Shown: piece after piece, positions 2 to 62,919 of the stretch
Layout: each line of letters starts with the position of its first letter
Numbering within the stretch: position 1 is the stretch's first letter
DNA from: a virus
Taxonomy: Duplodnaviria > Heunggongvirae > Uroviricota > Caudoviricetes
Strand: one strand, 5' to 3'
Length of the DNA stretch: 64,000 bases
IMG/VR virus record: IMGVR_UViG_2974574300_000001
Span: 20,420-84,419 of that record
Program-made: the position numbers and the translations under genes
Notes under the pieces: model-generated
Seen by the model: only the letters and a program-made list of their open reading frames with translations
Told to the model about the DNA's origin: nothing
Databases searched by the model: none

Positions 2-5694
<5,693 letters not shown>

Positions 5695-5696
5695 TA

Positions 5697-6863
5697 ATGG
5701 CAGTAGGTGAAATTCAAATTAGTGCCTTGCCTCAAGCAGCCTTACCAATTGACCTTAGTGATATCTTCCATCTTAAGCAGGGTATTGAGGATAAGAGATG
5801 TACTCTTGAGCAATTACTTGCTCCACACTCAAGCCTAAGAAATAACCCTCACGGTGTTACTAAAACACAAATTGGTTTAGATAATGTTATCAATGCTCTT
5901 CAGTTAGTTGCTGCAAATAACTTATCAGATGTTGCTAATGTCACTGAGGCAAGAGCAAATCTACAGATTATGTCTTCAGAAGAGGTTAATAGTCTTGTTC
6001 AACAGCATATTAATGATAAAAGTAACCCACACAATACAACTAAGGCACAGATTGGTTTGAGCAATGTCCAGAACTGGACAACATCTAATCTTTATAATGA
6101 AGATGCAGATAAGTACGCTACAGCAAGAGCAGTAAATAACTTGTACAAGGCTGTTCAGGCTTCTTATCCAGTAGGTACTATCCATCTCTCTATGAATCCT
6201 GCAAACCCTTCTACATATTTAATTTGTGGGGGTACTTGGGAGTTAGTTTCAAGAGGAAGAGCACTTGTAGGTTATGATAGTGATTCTAGGCCAGTTGGTA
6301 GTAACTTTGGCTCAAGTAGTGTTAGCTTATCTAGTAACAACCTACCATCACATAGCCATTCAATCTACCTAACTGGTGGTGGACACACTCATGGTGCTGC
6401 TATTACTATTGATGGCTTTGATTACGGCAATAAGAGCACAAACAGTTTCGATTATGGAACAAAGACCACTAATAGCACTGGTGCTCACACCCACTCAGTG
6501 AGTGGTTCAACAAATACCACAGGTAATCACACACATACTGTAGGTGGTCGTTATGGTGGTGACTCTATCGGTGGTAAACCGCGTGTTCAGGTATCTGGTA
6601 CAGAACAGGTTTCCAGTGTAGCTGGTGACCACTCACACACTATTAGCGGTTCAACAAATACCACAGGCAATCACCAACACACTGTTGCAATTGGTGCTCA
6701 CACGCATACTGTTGCAATTGGTGCTCATACCCATAAAGGCACAGTAACTTTGCAGTCATCTGAGCATACTCACTCAGGTACTACAGGTACTACAGGTGCT
6801 GGTCAAGCATTCAGCGTTGAACAACCATCCTTTGTGGTTTATGTATGGCAAAGAACCGCTTAA
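5697..6863 (+). CDS. tail fiber protein with C-terminal His-x-His repeat (metal-binding-type) tip
   Basis: 388 aa; C-terminus has many HxH motifs (SHSHS, GHTHG, AHTHSVSG, NHTHTV, DHSHT, NHQHTV, AHTHTV x2), as in T4 gp37/gp12-type fiber tips; shares a near-identical module with 8322..9257. Confidence 0.6.
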   Translation: MAVGEIQISALPQAALPIDLSDIFHLKQGIEDKRCTLEQLLAPHSSLRNNPHGVTKTQIGLDNVINALQLVAANNLSDVANVTEARANLQIMSSEEVNSLVQQHINDKSNPHNTTKAQIGLSNVQNWTTSNLYNEDADKYATARAVNNLYKAVQASYPVGTIHLSMNPANPSTYLICGGTWELVSRGRALVGYDSDSRPVGSNFGSSSVSLSSNNLPSHSHSIYLTGGGHTHGAAITIDGFDYGNKSTNSFDYGTKTTNSTGAHTHSVSGSTNTTGNHTHTVGGRYGGDSIGGKPRVQVSGTEQVSSVAGDHSHTISGSTNTTGNHQHTVAIGAHTHTVAIGAHTHKGTVTLQSSEHTHSGTTGTTGAGQAFSVEQPSFVVYVWQRTA

Positions 6864-6913: not shown

Positions 6914-8275
6914 ATGGCAGATTACAAATTGAGTGAATTAAACTCAATCGATACAATCCGTTCAGACGACCTTCTTCATGTCAGGGTTAAAAAGAGACCT
7001 GAAATGCTGGGTGATGAAGACCGTCGAATGACCTATCAAGACTTCTTAGCATCTTTTAAGCTTGAAAGATTTGTTCAGATTGCTGGTAGTACTATGACTG
7101 GTGACTTAGGGATTGTTAAGTTACTTTATGGTGGTAAGGCAGTCTTTGACCCTACAGGCTCTTCCGAGATTACTATGGGGGATGTTTTAAAGACTTTTAA
7201 AATTAATGCAAATGGTCTTAAACTAACTATTGCAGATGCTTCAAGGTCTGCAACTGTTTATCATACTCTTAATAAGCCAAGTCCTAATGAGCTTGGGATG
7301 AGAACTAATGAAGAGAATGATGCAAGATATGCAAGGCTTGCTGTCACAAACACATTCTCTGGGACTCAGAACATTCAAGGTGATGTTAACTTACTTCGCC
7401 TTAGAAACCAAAATGCAAATAATGCACAATATATTGAAGGTGTAGACCTAGATGGCTCGGCTAGATGGTTGGTTGGTATTAGTAAAAATGGTTCTGATGC
7501 AGTGCAGTTGTACAATAATAAATATGACTCAGCTTTGACTATTGCAAGTAATATCTCTGTTAATAAGTCTTTAGCAATCACTGGTCAAGTCCAACCTTCG
7601 GATTTCTCTAACTTAGATGCTAGATACTTTACTCAGACAGTTGCTAATCAGAGATTTGCACAGTTAGCTGGGAATAACACTTTTACAGGTGCTAATACTT
7701 TCACTAACCTTGTTGTTAAGAAGAATGCTAATGCTATTACTTTGCAGAATACTGATGCAGGTACAGCACTTTATATTCTCGGTAAGAGGTCTGATGGAAC
7801 AAATAAATGGTATGTTGGTACAGATTCTGATGAGACACGTCTGAACATTTATAACTACCTTACAGGTTCACAGGTTTCACTAGGGACTACTATTGGTATT
7901 AATAAAACCGTGCAAATCAATGGTCAAGTTCAGCCATCTGATTGGACTAACATTGACTCTAGATATATTCCGGCAGCAACATTAAGTACAATTGCAAGAA
8001 CTAATGCACAAAATACTTTTAATGGTGCGCAAACAGTTGTTAGTGATGGCGAAGGTTTAGTTATTAAAAACTCTACTCAGAATAGGCCATTGTATATTCG
8101 TGGTAAGGACGCTGCCAATGTATCAAGATGGTGGTTAGGTGTTGGTGACCCAAATTCTACTGATGTAGCCTTAAACAACAGCTTCTCTGGCACTCAGTTA
8201 ATTTTAGGTAACTCATCTGCAAGTATCAATAAGACATTAACCCTAGCAGCAGATTCAACCTTCAGATTTCTCTAA
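6914..8275 (+). CDS. tail fiber protein with triplicated ~115 aa module
   Basis: 453 aa; internal repeats each ending GQVQPSD(F/W)(S/T)N(L/I)D(A/S)RY; third copy runs across the stop into the frame of the next ORF. Confidence 0.55.
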   Translation: MADYKLSELNSIDTIRSDDLLHVRVKKRPEMLGDEDRRMTYQDFLASFKLERFVQIAGSTMTGDLGIVKLLYGGKAVFDPTGSSEITMGDVLKTFKINANGLKLTIADASRSATVYHTLNKPSPNELGMRTNEENDARYARLAVTNTFSGTQNIQGDVNLLRLRNQNANNAQYIEGVDLDGSARWLVGISKNGSDAVQLYNNKYDSALTIASNISVNKSLAITGQVQPSDFSNLDARYFTQTVANQRFAQLAGNNTFTGANTFTNLVVKKNANAITLQNTDAGTALYILGKRSDGTNKWYVGTDSDETRLNIYNYLTGSQVSLGTTIGINKTVQINGQVQPSDWTNIDSRYIPAATLSTIARTNAQNTFNGAQTVVSDGEGLVIKNSTQNRPLYIRGKDAANVSRWWLGVGDPNSTDVALNNSFSGTQLILGNSSASINKTLTLAADSTFRFL

Positions 8276-8321
8276 CTTAGATGCTAGATATTACACGCAA
8301 TCTACCGCAAACTCTAGGTAT

Positions 8322-9257
8322 ATGCTTGCTTATTCTTCTGGCACTGGTACAGAGGTAGGTGATAGTGATGGCATTGCTTGGAATGCTAAAACTGGTCTGT
8401 ATAATGTTACAGGTTATAGTGGAGGCTCAACACAGCTTGTTTTCCAAATGTATCAGGGTGCAAGCTCTACTCCCTCTGCTCAATTAAAATTCAACTACAG
8501 GAATGGGGGTTTTTGGTATAGGTCATCAAGGGATGGTTTTGGTTTTGAAGAGGACTTCACACAAATTTATACAGAGAAGTATAAACCAACTCCTTCAGCT
8601 ATTGGTGCATACACTAAAGCAGAGACTGACCAGAAGATTGCAGAAGCGATTAGTGACTCTACAGACCTTAATAAAATCTATCCAGTAGGTATTGTAACGT
8701 GGTTTAACAGTAATGTTAACCCTAATACCGCACTTCCTGGATTAACTTGGACGTACCTGAACAATGGTGTAGGTAGGACAATCAGGGTTGCAGCAGCTAA
8801 TGGTTCAGATGTTGCTACAACTGGAGGCTCAGATTCTGTTACGTTAGCAGTTGGAAACTTACCTTCACACACTCATAGTTTCTCTGCGACAACCTCTAGC
8901 TTTGACTACGGTACTAAAACCACTAACACTACTGGTGCTCACACCCACTCAGTGAGTGGTTCTACTAACAACACTGGTGCTCATACACATACAGTTGGTG
9001 GTCGTTATGGTGGTGACTCTATCGGTGGTAAACATCGTGTTCAGGTCTCAGGGACTGAACAGGTATCTAGCTATGATGGTGCTCACTCTCACACTGTATC
9101 TGGTACTGCTGCCTCTAACGGAAACCATGCTCACACAGTTGGTATTGGTGCTCACAGTCATACAGTTAGTGGTAACACTGGTGGTACAGGTTCTGGTTCA
9201 GCATTTAGTGTAACTAACCAGTTCTATAAGCTGATGGCTTGGGTAAGAACTGCTTAA
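8322..9257 (+). CDS. tail fiber protein, HxH-tip paralog; frame open upstream from 8247 and possibly fused to 6914..8275
   Basis: 311 aa from first ATG; C-terminal FDYGTKTTNTTGAHTHSVSGSTNNTGAHTHTVGGRYGGDSIGGKHRVQVSGTEQVSS nearly identical to 5697..6863; upstream in-frame translation QQIQPSDFSNLDARYYTQSTANSRY continues the repeat of the preceding gene. Confidence 0.55.
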   Translation: MLAYSSGTGTEVGDSDGIAWNAKTGLYNVTGYSGGSTQLVFQMYQGASSTPSAQLKFNYRNGGFWYRSSRDGFGFEEDFTQIYTEKYKPTPSAIGAYTKAETDQKIAEAISDSTDLNKIYPVGIVTWFNSNVNPNTALPGLTWTYLNNGVGRTIRVAAANGSDVATTGGSDSVTLAVGNLPSHTHSFSATTSSFDYGTKTTNTTGAHTHSVSGSTNNTGAHTHTVGGRYGGDSIGGKHRVQVSGTEQVSSYDGAHSHTVSGTAASNGNHAHTVGIGAHSHTVSGNTGGTGSGSAFSVTNQFYKLMAWVRTA

Positions 9258-16081: not shown

Positions 16082-16597
16082 TCAACTTAGTTTTGCAAAC
16101 TCTCCGTGGAGTTTAATAGCAGCTTCACAGTAAGCTTTATGGGCTTCTTCTTCCGTTGTGTATGTTCCTATATGTATAGTCTTGCCATTATGGTTAATCT
16201 GGGCTATCCACTTACCAGACTTGCTTCTACTTGTACCTTTTAAGTTTTTTGATGTTCTGGGTTGTCTCCTATTAGACATGTTCTGCTCTTTTGTGGCCTC
16301 TCTTAGATTGTCCCAAGCGTTATTCAAACCATCTCCATCTTTGTGGTCAATGTGTTTATCAGGCCACTTACCTGTCATCCAGAACCAAGCAATTCGGTGA
16401 TTACCTGTCCTGTATCCTAAAATCTGTGTGTGCATATACACACCAGACCTTGTGCGCTTAATTGCTCCGGCTTGGCTTCCAATGACCACCCTACTACTAT
16501 GTGGAGGTCTCCCAATCCATGTTAAGACCCCTGTTTCGGGGTCATAATCTAACCAAGACTTTAACTGTTCATGTGTGAATCCACAATCTCTCATCAA
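16082..16597 (-). CDS. HNH homing endonuclease with AP2-type DNA-binding domain
   Basis: 171 aa; YDPETGVLTW N-terminus, IDHKDGDGLNNAWDNL HNH region, C-terminal EEEAHKAYCEAAIKLHGEFA; free-standing, directly downstream of the polymerase. Confidence 0.65.
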   Translation of the reverse strand: MMRDCGFTHEQLKSWLDYDPETGVLTWIGRPPHSSRVVIGSQAGAIKRTRSGVYMHTQILGYRTGNHRIAWFWMTGKWPDKHIDHKDGDGLNNAWDNLREATKEQNMSNRRQPRTSKNLKGTSRSKSGKWIAQINHNGKTIHIGTYTTEEEAHKAYCEAAIKLHGEFAKLS

Positions 16598-17148
16598 TGT
16601 ACCTCATACCAGCTCTTACCAACTTTACCAGTACCAGTTACAAGCGTTTCCTCCTTAAGACCTAAGTTTCTTGATGCCTGACCATACATCCAGTCAATTA
16701 CTGCTTTAACATCCTGTGTCATCTCTTCTGGGCACTCCCAACTATTCTCGTCGTGGTATGCTAAAAGCAATCTAGCACCAATAGCTGGTTTTCGACCATT
16801 CAGCTTTGTAAGACCCTCTTCACAAGCCCTTCTACAAGCAAGGTTGATAGCTTCATTCTGAACCTGACTTTCCGAACCCATGAGCAAGTAATTTAAAAGT
16901 TTGTGCGGAGATTTACACCACAACCATGCACCTGCTACCTTTACAAAACCACCCTTAGAGATTGCAGCAGTCTTACCAAACACCTCTTCAAGAGCCTTCT
17001 TAGTGGCTTTGAAGTCTGCTTCCAAATTATCTATCAACTTTTTAATCTTAGGAAGGCGTACAAAGTAAGTTTGCTTAGTTAAAGCACCCTCTTCAGTAGT
17101 TGCAGCTTTAATCGTCTTAGCAAACTTCTCGTCACCTGCCCCAAACAA
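16594..17148 (-). CDS. DNA polymerase (family A), 3' exon
   Basis: 184 aa with FGAGDEKF (end of motif B) and LLAYHDE (motif C); separated from upstream pol ORF by an ORF-bearing intron-like insert. Confidence 0.7.
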   Translation of the reverse strand: MFGAGDEKFAKTIKAATTEEGALTKQTYFVRLPKIKKLIDNLEADFKATKKALEEVFGKTAAISKGGFVKVAGAWLWCKSPHKLLNYLLMGSESQVQNEAINLACRRACEEGLTKLNGRKPAIGARLLLAYHDENSWECPEEMTQDVKAVIDWMYGQASRNLGLKEETLVTGTGKVGKSWYEVH

Positions 17149-17951
17149 TACATCTGGTCAATACACTCGCAAGGTGTACCAGTTCTCTTATGAACTTCTC
17201 CGCATTTCTACGGAGTGTCGGACTATATCACGTAGCAGTGCTGCTACCGTTGCGCTTGGGATGGTCATTAGCTTACCACCCTACTCTACTCAGTTCATAC
17301 GTTAAGTATGCTTTTCGATAGTCTCTGAACGTTTCTCTGTTAGGAATCTCTATAATCATGTTATTTACTCAGGTAGTCAATTGCCCTTTGCATATTATCA
17401 ACGCTATCTGCAAGCAACCCCAAAGCTCTATTGCAATTGTGGCACAACATACCTCTTACTTTTCCGGTTTTGTGGTCATGGTCAACGACAAGTTTAGCCT
17501 TATGCCGTGAGCTATTCATGATAAAACCTTCACCGCCACAAATTTGACATTTGTAATCACAGTTACGAAGTAGGGTTTCAACCTCTTCTCTTTCTAAACC
17601 ATATGTTCTCAGGTAGTAATTCTTAACTCTACCTTTCTCTCCGCAATGCGAAGAACAATAAACTTGCCTTGCTGTTCTAGGCATGAACACCTTCTCACAG
17701 CTAGGACATTTCTTAGTAAGAACCCTATGTTCTGCTCTTCTGTCAAATTTTAATACGCAACTTCTGCACCGTTTTTGATTGTATTGGTATGGTTTAAACT
17801 CTGCACCACACTCAGTACACAATCTCTCTTTGTAACCTGCCATTGTCTCTCTCCTTTGTTTTAGGAGTCCTAACAGAGACTTCGCTGCTGATTACCATGT
17901 CTTTACAGACTTAGGCTTCCAGCAATTCACAACGTTTTACATGCGCCACTG
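17149..17951 (-). mobile_element. putative group I intron in the DNA polymerase gene (boundaries approximate)
   Basis: ~0.8 kb insert with stops in all pol frames, carrying an endonuclease ORF; joining ...RKKAKNGIYA to LLFGAG reconstructs the pol-A motif B spacing. Confidence 0.5.
17361..17843 (-). CDS. intron-encoded endonuclease (endonuclease VII-like HNH)
   Basis: 160 aa with multiple CxxC pairs and VVDHDHKTGKVRGMLCHNCNRALG, resembling T4 endo VII-type HNH. Confidence 0.6.
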   Translation of the reverse strand: MAGYKERLCTECGAEFKPYQYNQKRCRSCVLKFDRRAEHRVLTKKCPSCEKVFMPRTARQVYCSSHCGEKGRVKNYYLRTYGLEREEVETLLRNCDYKCQICGGEGFIMNSSRHKAKLVVDHDHKTGKVRGMLCHNCNRALGLLADSVDNMQRAIDYLSK

Positions 17952-20124
17952 ACGCATAAATACCATTCTTGGCTTTCTTACGACCCTTACTAATTTCTTG
18001 AAGAAGGTTTGTATCCTGAGTAGCTCGACAAGTCAAGATATCTTCCTCTTTATTAAGGCTGAAGTAGATACTATTTAAAGTATGTGCATCAGTTCCTGAG
18101 TACACCACGTACAAGTCATTTTCCGAATCATAATGCAAATACTTGTCAATCTCTGGGTTTAGATACTGGTCAAAATGTTTACAATAGTATCTACCATCCT
18201 CTTGTTTGACAAACTCAACCTCTTCTTTACCCTCTGTCACTGCTTTGGTGAACTCTTTATCACCCATAAAGTTACACAGCAGTACAAGTTGCGCGCTATT
18301 CATATCTGCTGAAACAATATTAGTCCCTTCTTCACAAGTCCACACCTCCCGCATAGGTGCTCCATAGACAGCAGCACCAGATGGTACGTTTACAATACCA
18401 TATTGTGTCATACGCCCAGTTGAAGTACCAAACACCATTGCACCAGCACTAAGGCGACCATCAGGACGAATCTGGTTCAACCAACCTTTTTCATCATCCT
18501 TTGAGTTCTCAATAGTTCTGCGTCTGTGCATCAAAGTATAGTATTTAGCAATCTTCTGTCCAAGCTCACCTTCAATCGTATCATAAGATGATTCAGTAAG
18601 TTTTGGCGAAGTACGGATTAAGCAAGGCTCAAGCAAATCTGTGTACTTCTTCACAGACCAGTTATGCTCAATGTACTGGACACCTTCATGTTCAACATAA
18701 CTCAAACCACACCGCTCAACCATTTCCTGCCACTTAGGATGTTTTGTAATCATCTTTTTATTGTCTTTGAAACGACAAACTTTGACAGGACGACCATCTG
18801 AGTCTTTCTTGTAGTTCCAGTCATCTGGAATCCAACCAACTGATTTCAAGTAGTCTTTAACAACTGCTACCTGAGTCATACGAGAAACTTCGAACTCAAT
18901 TGGTGTATATGGTGCATCAATCAAACCTGTGTAGCGACTTGACTCAAGTTCAAAGTGGTTAACGACGTGGCTGTTATAGTACTTCACAGTTTTGACTGTT
19001 TTTACTGGTTTCCAGTCTTTGCATTTCTTACCAATCTTTGCGTTCAACTCATTGCAAATTGCACGAGCATCCTTCATTGCTACAAAGCCTTCCTTGTACT
19101 CTTCACCAGTTACAGTGTTGGTTGGTGTATAGCAATTTCTCTTTTCAATGTTAAAAATCTTTGTAGTTGGCTTACCAAATGGCTTGATTTCATAAGTTTG
19201 CATCTCACCGTTACGTACCTGCTGACGATACTTTGTTTTAGGGTACTTGGTAATTCTCTTCAGTCCATCTGCATGACCAAATGTTTCAACATACTCATTC
19301 CAAGCTTTTGCAAACTCTTCTCCAGTGACTTTACCTTTGGTCTTAATAGTTGGAGGAAGATGTGGTTCAACCTCTGAAGCAAGCTCATTAGTCAACTTGT
19401 CAAGTTCCTTCACATGGAACTCCATAAGCTCTTTATCAGCTTTCCAACCATTGATAGCTTGTTGACTCATCCAGAAAGATGTTTCTTTAGCTCGCATGTA
19501 GGTTTCATAAGTGTCTATGCCACACTTCTTAAGCTTGAGATACTCATTATCAAGTGCCCGTTTAGTTTTGGCGTTAATACGGATATCTTCTACAACACGA
19601 GTGAAGATTTCTGCATTCCACACACCCCAATGCTCAATCTCTGGTTTACGAACACCAACACGAGCACCCCATGCAGCCAAACCATGAGCACCTTTATAAC
19701 CCTTTGGAGTTGGTCTATCCATCCACTGAACACGAGACTGGATAAGAGAATCCTGAAAGAAATTACTCCACGGCTTACATTTTGGATTATCAAAGTTCCA
19801 TAAATCCGGTGCAATGTGATTGAAGACCCACCAGTCATAACCGAGGCCGTTATGGATACAAAGTCGTTTTGCCTTTAACGCAAACTCAACACCTTCACGT
19901 AAACCACCCTTAATGTACTTAGTGTACTTGTGACCGAGGATAGGCTCATCTGTAAAGACCCATACAGGTGGCTCTTCATCGTCAGATTTATAGTCTGCAA
20001 AGGCCATTACGTGAACTTTAGTGAACTCAAGGAGTAAACCATCAGTTTCTGTATCACCAACCAAATGTAAGTTTTTAAAATCTACGTTTTCCATTTTTAC
20101 TCCCTCTAAAATCATTAACCCCAT
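17952..20124 (-). CDS. DNA polymerase (family A), 5' exon with 3'-5' exonuclease region
   Basis: ORF 17911..20124 (737 aa); the last ~13 codons are probably intron sequence; C-terminus reaches the start of motif B (RKKAKNGIY). Confidence 0.7.
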
Positions 20125-20183: not shown

Positions 20184-20350
20184 TTTGCGAAGTGGGTTTT
20201 TACTTAAAAGGTTACTTAACAGTTTAACTATACAGATACTTTAAAACTCTTAAAAGATTATTTAATAGCTTTTAAAAAGCTTTAAAGTATAACGTATAGA
20301 ATACGTTAAGATAAAAGATTAAACTTAATAGTTACTTAAAAGAGGCTTAC

Positions 20351-27014: not shown

Positions 27015-27491
27015 AGAATACCTACACTATGACCCGAAACAGGGGTCTTTACTTGGTTAGTTGATAGAAAAGGTAAGGCCAAAGCTGGCTCAGTAGCAGG
27101 TTTTAAACACCATAGCGGTTATATCTATATAAAACTCTTCGGAAAAAGATATGCAGCACACAGGCTGGCATTCTTGTATATGAAAGGATACCTCCCAAAA
27201 TTTGTTGACCACAAGAATTGTATCAGATACGACAACTGGTTCGACAATTTGAGAGAGTGTAGCAGGTCAGACAACAACTGTAATGCAGTCAAAAGAAGAG
27301 ATAATAAGTCTGGTGTGAAGGGTGTATATTACCACAAGCAAAGAGGTAGATGGGCTGCACAAGTTAAGCATAATAAAGTTTGCTACCATCTAGGTCTATT
27401 TGACTCTGTTGCTGAGGCTGAAGAAGTTGTCAAAAAGAAAAGAGAAGAACTTCATAGAGAGTTTACAAATCACGGAGAAGCTCATGAATGA
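26992..27491 (+). pseudogene. HNH-AP2 homing endonuclease interrupted by a frameshift near 27033-27040
   Basis: ATG at 26992 gives MLTQQTLKEYLHYDPKQGSLLG then stop; next frame continues PETGVFTWLVDRKGKAKAGSVAGFKHHSGYIYIKLFGKRYAAHRLAF into ORF 27174..27491; YDPETGV(F/L)TW matches the intact paralogs at 16082 and 40416. Confidence 0.55.
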
Positions 27492-34974: not shown

Positions 34975-35716
34975 TAACAGGCTCTATAGCTCATCTAAAA
35001 CGTGCCTAAACAGGGAAACTCTACAGATGTAGACAATCCTGTGCTAAATGATGTACGATGTAAGAAACTATACAACATAGGAGTCTTACATGCCAAACTA
35101 TCACGTCACTGAAGATGGAAAAGTCTTTAGGGAAAATGGTGTAGAGCTTACGCAGTGGAAATCCAACACTGGGTATATGAAAGTGAGGTTTTACGGTAAG
35201 AAGAATCGTGACATGTATGTCCACAGGTTAGTTGCTGAGAAATATGTACCTAACCCAAATAATCTTCCAATTGTAAAACATAAGGACGATAACAAACTAA
35301 ATAACCACGCATCTAACTTAGAATGGGGTACTCATTCTGAGAATGCTAAAGAAGGTTATGAGAACGGATGCTACAAGTTCCACAAGCGTTCATATGCCGT
35401 GAAAGCCACACACAAAGTGACAAAGGAAGTTATTGTTGCTAAGTCAATACGAGAGTTATCCAATATACTTGGACACAATCGCAAGACCATCTCTTCAATA
35501 TTGAAGGGTGTAAAAGAGCATAATAACTTCGAATATGAGTTTGAATACATCTAAATGCCGAACGACTAACCGTGATGAATGTAGCGGTGTAGGGTCAAGC
35601 GACTCGAAATGGTACGCTACTTAGAAATAAGTAGAAGATATAGTCTGGACTTACTGGCGACAGTAAGCAGCTTGAATAAAGCGGGGTAAGCTTAGCGAAC
35701 TTACCTGAACAACAAG
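34975..35716 (+). mobile_element. putative group I intron in nrdD carrying an HNH endonuclease ORF
   Basis: 742 nt insert; upstream exon ends in T, insert ends in G; splicing gives ...VISPMG-CRAFLSPYHNEYGEEFYVGRANIGAVSLNLP and a 714 aa product. Confidence 0.6.
35090..35554 (+). CDS. intron-encoded HNH homing endonuclease
   Basis: 154 aa with VHRLVAEKYV...KHKDDNKLNNHASNLEWGTHSEN (HNH-type His/Asn motif). Confidence 0.6.
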   Translation: MPNYHVTEDGKVFRENGVELTQWKSNTGYMKVRFYGKKNRDMYVHRLVAEKYVPNPNNLPIVKHKDDNKLNNHASNLEWGTHSENAKEGYENGCYKFHKRSYAVKATHKVTKEVIVAKSIRELSNILGHNRKTISSILKGVKEHNNFEYEFEYI

Positions 35717-36664
35717 TGTAGAGCATTTTTATCACCATACCATAACGAATATGGTGAAGAGTTTTATGTAGGTCGTGCTAACATTGGTGCTGTATCTTTG
35801 AACTTACCAATGATTTACCAGTATTCTAAAGAGAATGGCTTAGATTTCTGGAAAGAGCTTGATAAGTACCTAGAAATGATTCGCAGCTTCCACAAGAAAC
35901 GTTACGAAATGATTGCTAATATGCCAGCAAGTTCTAACCCTCTTGCATTCACACAAGGTGGTCTGTACAAAGGGAATAAGAAACCTACTGACAAGGTTGG
36001 CTGGGATATCGTGAAGTCCTTCACAGCTTCTTTTGGGGTTACTGCGCTTGATGAGCTAGATGTTCTTGCTGAAGGTAAACGACTTCATGAAGTTGGAAGC
36101 TGTAGTTTTGCATATGATGTTCTGGAATATATCAACATGAAGACTGAAGAGTTTAAAAATGAAGATGGCTTCTTATATGCAGTCTATGGCACTCCAGCAG
36201 AATCACTTTGTGGAACTCAGCTAAAACAGTTCAGAGATATGTTTGGCGTTATCAAAGGCGTTTCTGACAAGGAATACTTTACAAACAGCTTCCATATGAA
36301 TGTTGCAGCCGACATTACACCATTTGAGAAGCAGGACTTAGAAGAACCCTTCTTCCATATCTGTAGAGGCGGCAGAATCCAGTATGTAAGAGTGGCTAAT
36401 CCAGAAAACTTACCAGCACTTAAGAGTTGTATTACAAGAGGGATGTTGAAAGGTTTCTATCAGGGACTTAACTTTGACTTAGCAATCTGTGAGCATTGTG
36501 GCAACAGACCAAAGGCTGATGTTGAAGAATGTGAGGTTTGTCATTCACACGATATCTCTGTGATTAACAGGGTGTGCGGGTACTTGTCATTCACAAAAAT
36601 TAAAGGTCAGTCTCGAATGAATGACGCTAAGATGGCAGAAATTAAGGATAGGGTTTCTATGTAG
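35717..36664 (+). CDS. nrdD: anaerobic ribonucleotide reductase (class III), 3' exon
   Basis: Frame open from 35696; contains a four-Cys cluster and C-terminal glycyl-radical motif RVCGYL. Confidence 0.75.
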   Translation, partial: CRAFLSPYHNEYGEEFYVGRANIGAVSLNLPMIYQYSKENGLDFWKELDKYLEMIRSFHKKRYEMIANMPASSNPLAFTQGGLYKGNKKPTDKVGWDIVKSFTASFGVTALDELDVLAEGKRLHEVGSCSFAYDVLEYINMKTEEFKNEDGFLYAVYGTPAESLCGTQLKQFRDMFGVIKGVSDKEYFTNSFHMNVAADITPFEKQDLEEPFFHICRGGRIQYVRVANPENLPALKSCITRGMLKGFYQGLNFDLAICEHCGNRPKADVEECEVCHSHDISVINRVCGYLSFTKIKGQSRMNDAKMAEIKDRVSM

Positions 36665-37272: not shown

Positions 37273-37303
37273 TACATCACCTTTTTATTGGTGAGGTAAC
37301 TAT

Positions 37304-54779: not shown

Positions 54780-55127
54780 ATGGCTTATGTAACCGTAATT
54801 ACTGATAAAGCTGGCGCATCTTGGTCAACTCAGGTTAGTGATAAGATGTCACCTATGCAGTGTCTAAAATACTTTGAGCAATGGAATAAAGGCGAAGATG
54901 TAAGCCCCTTTCAAGTGATGCAGGTTATCCATGTAGATAACGAAGGGAATAAAACGACCTTAAATAGTGAGTACTACGCAAGCCGTTTTGAAACGAGAAG
55001 TAAAGCAATGAAGCTCTTACGTGAGGCCGGATATGGTCACATTGCCGCGATAATCTGGGATGACCTTCTAAAAAGTCAACGTATCAGCTATGTAAAACCT
55101 GAAAAATATTCATCAGTTAATCAATAA
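54780..55127 (+). CDS. small early-type protein
   Basis: 115 aa ORF after cassette B copy 2. Confidence 0.4.
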   Translation: MAYVTVITDKAGASWSTQVSDKMSPMQCLKYFEQWNKGEDVSPFQVMQVIHVDNEGNKTTLNSEYYASRFETRSKAMKLLREAGYGHIAAIIWDDLLKSQRISYVKPEKYSSVNQ

Positions 55128-61119: not shown

Positions 61120-61146
61120 GAAAATAAAAAGGCTCCCGAAGGAGCC
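61120..61146 (-). terminator. rho-independent terminator downstream of the endolysin
   Basis: minus strand reads ggctcc-ttcg-ggagcc followed by tttttatttt. Confidence 0.6.
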
Positions 61147-62873: not shown

Positions 62874-62919
62874 TAAATATCCTTATAAATAGTTAAAGGG
62901 GCATCAGCCCTATTCACAC

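Follow-up and report, generated by a model that had tools for sequence, protein, structure and literature searches.

The split long tail fibre gene in the genome record of Salmonella phage Si3 is probably a sequencing artefact

Introduction

Two adjacent ORFs annotated as tail fiber proteins can be two proteins or one gene that has been interrupted, and an interruption can belong to the phage or to its genome record. This question is raised by a locus within the window (the whole stretch of 64,000 nucleotides analyzed here), which comes from Salmonella phage Si3, a Felixounavirus (Felix O1-like). The Si3 genome is in RefSeq (YP_009600277/278) and features in comparative as well as structural surveys of the fibres of Felixounavirus. 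Left uncorrected, its annotation implies a fibre of two subunits or a receptor-binding protein cut short, neither of which probably exists. Here, we show that the two ORFs are halves of a single long tail fibre (LTF) gene, and we weigh the possible causes of the split.

Results

We find that the two ORFs together match the LTF family over its whole length. Against profile PHROG 4277 (780 positions), ORF1 covers positions 1-447 (E = 2e-249) and ORF2 positions 471-780 (E = 1e-158). The domains follow the order of the family, namely an N-terminal attachment region, gp37_trimer repeats, gp37_C collar, and HxH needle. The surroundings agree as well, with the short-fibre gene directly upstream and two small genes, then td/frd, downstream. 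The Si3 gene is thus a member of the LTF family, orthologous to Felix O1 ORF77/gp77 and Bas63 gp27, and its reading frame in the record is not intact: instead of a single polypeptide of ~780 aa, the record gives 453 + 311 aa. It shares with other Felixounavirus LTFs (PHROG 4277) three PF20744 gp37_trimer repeats, PF12604 gp37_C, six HxH motifs, and its place after the short-fibre gene. It differs from them in the interruption at 8249/8250, whereas the other members are single ORFs except in ST11 (same gap) and EC6 (different site).

Table 1. Features of the Si3 fibre locus, in window coordinates.
Feature	Position	Strand	Content
Short tail fibre gene, 388 aa	5697..6863	+	Intact; Gp10_C, Phage_fiber, PHROG 2097
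LTF gene	6914..9257	+	Si3; broken by 2-nt gap in the record
ORF1, 453 aa, 49.4 kDa	6914..8275	+	N-terminal baseplate-binding region and 2.7/3 gp37_trimer repeats
Repeat copy 1, QPSDFSNLDARY	7592..7627	+	ORF1 aa 227-238
Repeat copy 2, QPSDWTNIDSRY	7931..7966	+	ORF1 aa 340-351
Stretch open in ORF2 frame 5' of the ATG	8247..8321	+	Encodes QQIQPSDFSNLDARYYTQSTANSRY, the remainder of repeat copy 3
Lesion site, GG of GGG run absent	8249..8250	+	From alignments to relatives
Repeat copy 3, QPSDFSNLDARY	8256..8291	+	ORF2 frame
ORF2, 311 aa, 32.4 kDa	8322..9257	+	gp37_C collar, HxH (di-histidine) needle, head of receptor-binding tip

The ORF1 protein is identical to ARK07275.1 / YP_009600277.1 (phage Si3) and matches PF20744 (gp37_trimer) in three stretches (E = 2.4e-72). 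ORF2 matches PF12604 (E = 2.1e-34) and PF03335, and the PDB entries 2xgf (T4 gp37 tip) and 8ju3 (Mu fibre). The repeat motif, QPSD[FW]xN[LI]D[AS]RY, occurs in three copies with a period of ~109-113 aa. The third gp37_trimer copy spans aa 379-473 of the intact orthologue, and the break, at aa 446/447, falls inside it. ORF1 terminates in INKTLTLAADSTFRFL, with 7 out-of-frame residues (ADSTFRFL) before the TAA stop at 8273-8275. The rest of the copy is encoded in the frame of ORF2, as the original prediction had described: this frame is open from 8247, right behind a TAG at 8244-8246, and across the annotated ATG it reads QQIQPSDFSNLDARYYTQSTANSRY-MLAYSSG. Between 8247 and 8321, the ORF2 frame contains no ATG, GTG, or TTG start codon.

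Alignment to relatives locates the lesion precisely. Where they read CTA GCA GGG CAG ATT (L A G Q I), the window has CTAGCAG^CAGATT, so that CTAGCAGGGCAG in phage PMBT20 becomes CTAGCAGCAG in Si3. The two frames do differ by +1, consistent with the 1-nt shift first proposed for 8247-8255; the lesion itself is the loss of 2 nt, GG, from a GGG run. No other indel separates the LTF genes of Si3 and PMBT20, and apart from it the two are identical from before 7890 to 8433. At the junction, the intact allele reads GCAGGGCAG and the deleted allele GCAGCAG. The extra 2 nt are present in at least 16 records that share this context and absent only in ST11. Elsewhere, the deleted allele has 0 matches in IMG/VR and 0 in GTDB genome contigs; two matches in JGI metagenomes both carry a 2-nt spacer, and one of these is an unrelated sequence. 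An exact-protein cluster look-up in a collection of 15 billion proteins returned no 453-aa form of ORF1 from a source other than Si3.

When the two G's are re-added, the gene encodes an LTF of 781 aa (83.7 kDa) with six HxH motifs at aa 653-748, which bears out the expectation of a fibre of ~780 aa ending in an HxH tip. There is no sign of decay: ORF2 is intact, and 771 of the 781 residues (98.7%) are identical to the PMBT20 protein. The alternatives differ at the peptide level. A tryptic digest of the intact LTF would yield TLTLAGQIQPSDFSNLDAR across the junction, and a truncated ORF1 product would end ...TLTLAADSTFR(FL).

In relatives whose flanks are identical, one protein spans the break, in agreement with the view that the two ORFs are one gene frameshifted in its third repeat copy. 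PMBT20, VSe11/102, Felix O1, and FO1a have GGG and a single LTF ORF of 779-782 aa; in PMBT20, VSe11, and Felix O1, this CDS of 2346-2349 nt follows the short-fibre gene. One open LTF frame of 785-872 codons is likewise present at 21 of 24 IMG/VR loci. A two-gene arrangement in which the second gene has its own ribosome binding site occurs in none of these relatives. Among ~200 Felixounavirus genomes, the only split LTF beyond those of Si3 and ST11 is that of EC6, at a different site beside a T-run. In Felix O1, gp77 forms an 82-kDa major virion band that includes N-terminal peptides (PMC3185647), and is therefore one polypeptide. The LTF of Bas63 is a trimer made from a single gene (PMC12609058).

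Homopolymer anomalies in the Si3 record were assessed by site comparisons and a five-way census. A tblastn search of 115 PMBT20 ORFs against the window recovered only two real frame breaks, one in the LTF gene and one in an HNH endonuclease gene, where the cause is a C4-to-C3 contraction at 27032. Another C4-to-C3 contraction is present at 62907. Two further contractions are confined to Si3: an A4-to-A3 change at 20320, with no identical record among at least 144, and an A6-to-A5 change at 61125, which departs from nearly all of ~200 records. These four length anomalies lie at otherwise invariant sites, and the LTF gap is itself an indel in a homopolymer run (GGG to G) that near-identical relatives do not have.

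The LTF break and the contractions at 27032 and 62907 are exclusive to Si3 and ST11 (57 to >200 records compared). These are not sister genomes. They are 97.6% identical, with 13 exclusive SNPs in 38 kb, and their local haplotypes around 27032 differ. The ST11 record has ~18 further deletions of 1-2 nt, mostly in homopolymers, and many split genes. In the fibre tip, no record is closer to Si3 than ST11 (98.1% over 8254-9257; 11 SNPs at 8729-8891 are exclusive to the pair), and the shared gap could therefore have been inherited with the tip allele. The ST11 fibre is not a plain copy of that of Si3, since the two differ at 22 positions in 7890-9257, 19 of them in 8254-9257. Reference 112 in PMC8749512 places the work on Si3 and St11 with one group.

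Discussion

We conclude that the LTF split is a homopolymer under-call, that is, a sequencing or consensus artefact in the record rather than a property of the phage, with a probability of roughly two in three. Under-calling of the GGG run would have dropped two G's at 8249/8250 and left split ORFs in the record, and the gap is most likely absent from the phage DNA. The real Si3 would then make one LTF polypeptide of ~84 kDa, trimerizing into six straight fibres. The record resembles those with 454/Ion Torrent-era homopolymer errors: the gap lies in a G run, contractions occur at 27032, 62907, 20320, and 61125, and the gap is shared, along with the first two of these, only with an error-rich record from the same laboratory. 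It departs from the usual pattern, the loss of one base, in that two bases of a 3-mer are missing. Si3 was probably sequenced on a platform of the Ion Torrent/454 type. The Obolensk group, who are collaborators, work with Ion Torrent PGM and Newbler and call the phage "Vsi3" (PMC5968733). Of the causes put forward in the original prediction, sequencing error is thus the best supported; a recent inactivating mutation is less probable but credible, and programmed frameshifting is unsupported.

Programmed frameshifting and an evolved two-part fibre would both make the split a functional arrangement. Programmed +1 frameshifting is used by E. coli prfB and reportedly also in structural genes of Listeria phage PSA (cps/tsh), which Zimmer et al. 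are said to have described in 2003. As in these systems, two frames overlap in a Si3 structural gene and a +1 shift would lead to a longer product. The ORF2 frame is open from the start of 8247-8255 and carries the remainder of the repeat, such that a +1 shift confined to three codons would suffice for a functional protein; a programmed +1 (or -2) shift there would supply full-length fibre along with a truncated isoform, and its junction peptide would read TLTLA[A]IQPSDFSNLDAR or TLTLAQIQPSDFSNLDAR. The likeness is one of geometry, and we regard this reading as very improbable and reject it. The shift is not conserved, and relatives with identical flanks (+/-180-400 nt) are in frame. A slippery codon of the CCC/CUU type is lacking, and the codons GCA GCA GAT allow no +1/-2 re-pairing for tRNA-Ala. 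In 8247-8255, there is no rare or stop A-site codon that could serve as a slow codon, and upstream of it no Shine-Dalgarno-like stimulator. There is also no homopolymer for transcriptional slippage, and no stimulatory RNA structure was detected in a 111-nt region (z = -0.36; 73 of 200 shuffles fold as well). Still more improbable is an evolved fibre of two subunits like T4 gp34-gp37, in which ORF2 would be translated from the ATG at 8322 and dock noncovalently onto ORF1. An ATG is indeed present 46 nt past the ORF1 stop, but it encodes an internal Met of the intact protein, and this Met is not conserved, being replaced in relatives that have another tip module (KYIWSAV). The Shine-Dalgarno sequence suspected to be weak proves to be so: AGGT lies only 2 nt before the ATG, compared with AGGAG, AAGGA, and GAGGTGA at 4-8 nt in neighboring genes. 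The break sits within a repeat domain, initiation at this ATG would lose 25 codons of conserved repeat sequence, and no relative has the arrangement. We therefore reject this candidate too.

The remaining alternative, a real 2-bp deletion by which the LTF is truncated, is possible, though unlikely. Si3 would then produce an N-terminal fragment of 49 kDa that lacks the receptor-binding tip, and the free 32-kDa tip would occur in trace amounts at best. Such a phage would have no functional LTF and would infect via the intact short fibre, the orthologue of Felix O1 ORF76 and Bas63 gp26, which carries its own gp37-like HxH tip and would be the sole complete fibre. The presence of the allele in ST11 would be due to common descent, or to recombination among phages maintained in one laboratory or cocktail. 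The precedent is lambda PaPa, in which a frameshift in stf led to loss of the side fibres (Hendrix and Duda 1992, as summarized in PMC12617516); this frameshift stops side-fibre synthesis, and plaque formation is kept (PMC12617516). Si3 resembles it in having a small frameshifting deletion relative to an intact ancestral gene, two adjacent ORFs left behind, another receptor-binding protein, and intact relatives. For lambda, fibre loss is shown experimentally, whereas the Si3 case is read from the record sequence. A real deletion would also fit a window that is otherwise clean, with two real frame breaks among 115 ORFs, and an allele present in ST11, a distinct genome. In Bas63, whose structure paper describes the short fibre gp26 and the LTF gp27, virions carry 0-6 LTFs, and LTFs are thus dispensable for particle assembly (PMC12609058). 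The PhageMaP preprint contains no explicit statement on LTF essentiality. Against a real deletion, no further record among ~200 Felixounavirus genomes has the allele beyond Si3 and ST11, both phages would have to retain a null allele although the LTF gene recombined several times, and in Felix O1 gp77 is among the major virion proteins (PMC3185647). The sharing with ST11 is no proof of a real feature, because the other two indels exclusive to the pair are plain homopolymer contractions on unrelated backgrounds; with an error-rich record from the same laboratory, ST11 cannot count as independent confirmation. The fuller proposal is slightly more doubtful, namely that a genuine GG deletion circulates among distinct phages, Si3 and ST11 at the least, whether natural or laboratory-selected, which lack a functional LTF and infect Salmonella through the short gp37-tipped fibre alone, as a myovirus counterpart of lambda PaPa.

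Since the split is most likely a sequencing error, the finding is an ordinary one, and the two "tail fiber proteins" of Si3 are best treated as a single LTF gene that probably carries a 2-nt error. If the deletion were real, the long fibre of Felix O1-like phages would be dispensable on some hosts, which would be useful to know for phages in Salmonella biocontrol cocktails. Even so, knockouts of fibre genes by frameshift are already known, and this would be one of that kind.

Some features of the locus sit uneasily with an under-call. Loss of 2 nt from a 3-mer is unusual for flow-based chemistries, in which errors typically amount to 1 nt. VSe11 and VSe102, Ion Torrent records from a collaborating laboratory, keep GGG in the identical context. 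The phage nearest in the fibre tip, ST11, has the same gap.

ST11 also lacks 7709-7889 (181 nt); added to the 2-nt gap, this comes to 183 nt, equal to 61 codons. Frame compensation by this deletion was considered and rejected: stops occur in the shifted stretch, and the first ST11 CDS ends ~95 nt past the junction. We also considered the gap as a recombination scar at the module boundary at 8254, which found no support, PMBT20 being identical across this point apart from the GG. Repeat copy 3 does mark a boundary for module exchange, because the homology of many relatives begins or stops there (records matching only query 105-201 or 1-141/153), and the tip modules of relatives diverge directly past DARYY.

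A long tail fiber gene recorded as two ORFs

The products of ORF1 and ORF2 are exact sequence matches to ARK07275 and ARK07276 of Salmonella phage Si3, a Felixounavirus (genome KY626162, 84,419 bp). Within the phage collection, PMBT20 has the genome closest to that of Si3 (97 to 99% identity by segment). PMBT20, VSe11, VSe102, Felix O1, and FO1a each have one coding sequence of 779 to 782 codons at the position of this long tail fiber (LTF). Furthermore, 21 of 24 related IMG/VR loci have one open frame of 785 to 872 codons through the break point (the remaining three comprise one cut by a contig end, one without a match to the search motif, and one, EC6, split elsewhere). Pfam places three PF20744 (gp37_trimer) domains ahead of PF12604 (gp37_C) and HxH "Phage_fiber" repeats. 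The break, at aa 446/447, thus falls within the third gp37_trimer copy, which covers aa 379-473 of the intact orthologue. Likewise, ORF1 aligns to positions 1-447 and ORF2 to positions 471-780 of PHROG 4277, a tail-fiber family of 780 positions. The original prediction of one fiber gene broken in its third internal repeat is therefore upheld both by these families, which span the break, and by the orthologous fibers, which are encoded as a single LTF and not as two genes.

Coordinates of the fiber features in the window
Feature	Position	Strand	Basis
ORF1, 453 aa	6914..8275	+	ORF call; C-terminal end ...INKTLTLAADSTFRFL-TAA
ORF2, 311 aa	8322..9257	+	ORF call
Short fiber	5697..6863		
Long fiber (LTF)	6914..9257		

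The fiber tip matches the solved structures of the T4 gp37 tip (2xgf) and the Mu fiber (8ju3). In Bas63, another Felixounavirus, cryo-EM shows that the short fiber gp26 and the long fiber gp27 are trimers, each from a single gene, and that the long fiber also has beta-helix repeat domains (PMC12609058). The Felix O1 orthologue of the LTF, gp77, is a major virion band of 82 kDa that yielded N-terminal peptides, and hence one polypeptide (PMC3185647).

The reading frames agree with the layout first described. ORF1 contains the motif QPSD[FW]xN[LI]D[AS]RY at 7592-7627 and 7931-7966, while the third copy (8256-8291) continues in the frame of ORF2, one repeat period (~109-113 aa) beyond the second. 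Shifted by +1 from that of ORF1, this frame runs open from 8247, directly after a TAG at 8244-8246, and encodes QQIQPSDFSNLDARYYTQSTANSRY ahead of its first possible start codon. In the junction alignment, the sole difference is that relatives read CTA GCA GGG CAG ATT (LAGQI) and the window reads CTAGCAG--CAGATT. The frames thus differ by +1 as predicted, but the lesion consists of 2 nt missing from a G run rather than a shift of 1 nt. It is the only indel relative to PMBT20 across the whole LTF gene, and at least 16 GenBank records of the same local context have the two extra bases. Restoring GG in silico yields the anticipated fusion of ~780 aa with an HxH tip: a protein of 781 aa and 83.7 kDa with six HxH motifs, identical to that of PMBT20 at 771 of 781 positions. 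The junction peptide of the restored protein is TLTLAGQIQPSDFSNLDAR.

The LTF of Escherichia phage EC6 (IMGVR_UViG_2706796256, 3725-3804) is split into 541 and 274 aa at another site (after ...YRNGG), where an extra base adjoins a T6 run. This split is probably another record-level error.

Homopolymer anomalies in Si3 and ST11

Exactly the same GG gap occurs in one other record only, that of Salmonella phage ST11 (MF370225), with 201/201 identity around it. Weighed as a possible independent confirmation of the gap, the ST11 record is poor and unreliable for comparative work: its LTF is in three pieces with a 181-nt deletion in the repeat region (window 7709-7889), rIIA, NAMPT, nrdG, and the DNA polymerase gene are split, and single bases are missing relative to the window at ~18 places, mostly homopolymers. 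Si3 and ST11 are part of the same laboratory collection (reference 112 in PMC8749512). They are not sister genomes, sharing 97.6% identity and each being closer to PMBT20 in a 38-kb alignment of five genomes. In that alignment, the only short isolated indels common to any subset are those of Si3 and ST11. Of the 13 SNPs exclusive to this pair, 11 fall in the fiber tip (8729-8891), and for 8254-9257 no record in the whole phage collection is closer to Si3 than ST11 (98.1%). This genealogical link between the two phages is real and confined to the LTF gene.

The window is much cleaner than the ST11 record; a tblastn search with 115 PMBT20 ORFs found only two real frame breaks, in the LTF and in an HNH homing-endonuclease gene. 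In the latter, a C4-to-C3 change at 27032-27036 frameshifts the gene start, which overlaps the end of an exonuclease gene. C3 is common to Si3 and ST11, and C4 is present in the other full-length matches listed (>30), a count that leaves out the unannotated draft GE_vB_B1, which also spans 191 nt at this site. Local haplotypes differ between Si3 and ST11, with five Si3-private SNPs in the 50 nt upstream. At 62907 (62895-62915), a C4-to-C3 change in a terminator-like hairpin (GGGGCATCAG-CCC) is identical in ST11, and the 30 best matches listed, among 51 records at 99% identity or higher, all have the extra base. Two intergenic changes are A4-to-A3 at 20320, found in Si3 alone (no match among at least 144 near-identical records), and A6-to-A5 at 61125, which sets Si3 against nearly all of ~200 records. 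The LTF gap and these four anomalies are all homopolymer contractions, a signature of flow-based sequencing. Compared with PMBT20 and ST11 only, Si3 also has an intergenic A run one base shorter at 55101 and an intergenic T run one base longer at 37281.

Origin of the split

We consider a homopolymer under-call in the Si3 record the likeliest origin of the split (probability roughly 0.68): two G's of the GGG run at 8249/8250 would have been missed, so that one LTF gene was recorded as two ORFs. The collaborating Obolensk group, which names Si3 once as "Vsi3", sequenced VSe11 and VSe102 by Ion Torrent PGM with Newbler assembly (PMC5968733), and we infer that Si3 was sequenced likewise. However, GGG was read correctly in VSe11 and VSe102, and the loss of two bases from a 3-mer is atypical of flow-chemistry error. 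A genuine, recent LTF knockout is possible, if doubtful. The tip kinship of Si3 and ST11 means that the gap could have traveled with that allele, and a knockout phage would rely on the short fiber, which is intact; Bas63 particles carry zero to six LTFs, which are not required for assembly (PMC12609058). The closest analogue would be lambda PaPa, in which a frameshift in the fiber gene stf blocks side-fiber synthesis while plaque formation is kept (PMC12617516). Against a knockout, the LTF is unbroken in all high-quality genomes of Felixounavirus, and a null allele would need to persist in two lineages through several recombination events in the gene. Whether under-call or deletion, the event is commonplace and of a type already known; the practical value lies in correcting the annotation of the Si3 RefSeq genome.

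Programmed frameshifting to give two fiber isoforms, once proposed, now seems highly improbable as a source of full-length fiber, because conservation would be expected and yet relatives identical for hundreds of bases on each side stay in frame. Any shift that keeps the conserved QPSD motif is confined to the codons GCA GCA GAT, where tRNA-Ala has no re-pairing option in the +1 or −2 frame. Inspection of the sequence there showed neither a stop nor a rare codon in the A site. An SD-like stimulator is likewise absent upstream, as is any A/T run on which transcription could slip at the junction, and the junction RNA is no more strongly folded than shuffled controls (z = −0.36). An evolved two-subunit fiber is also highly improbable, and translation of ORF2 on its own from its ATG appears unlikely. 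In the intact LTF that ATG encodes an internal Met, and relatives with another tip module read KYIWSAV there. As noted at the outset, its Shine-Dalgarno is weak and badly spaced (AGGT only, 2 nt upstream), whereas neighboring genes have AGGAG, AAGGA, or GAGGTGA at 4 to 8 nt.

Tip exchange and mosaicism

In many Felixounavirus records, the match to the window is confined to one side, upstream or downstream, of the conserved stretch encoding QPSDFSNLDARY (8254, at the third motif copy), and LTF tip modules diverge directly after DARYY. Receptor-binding tips thus seem to be swapped by recombination at the third copy.

Large presence/absence differences among Si3, ST11, PMBT20, VSe11, and Felix O1 occur at 16194-18141 and 34977-35725. 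These surround the DNA polymerase and nrdD genes, where HNH or endonuclease VII insertions split the genes, a known homing-endonuclease mosaicism. Finally, GU169904 ("Staphylococcus phage SA1", UNVERIFIED_ORG, 147 kb) contains a Felix O1-like tail-fiber/td/frd block and appears to be chimeric or contaminated.
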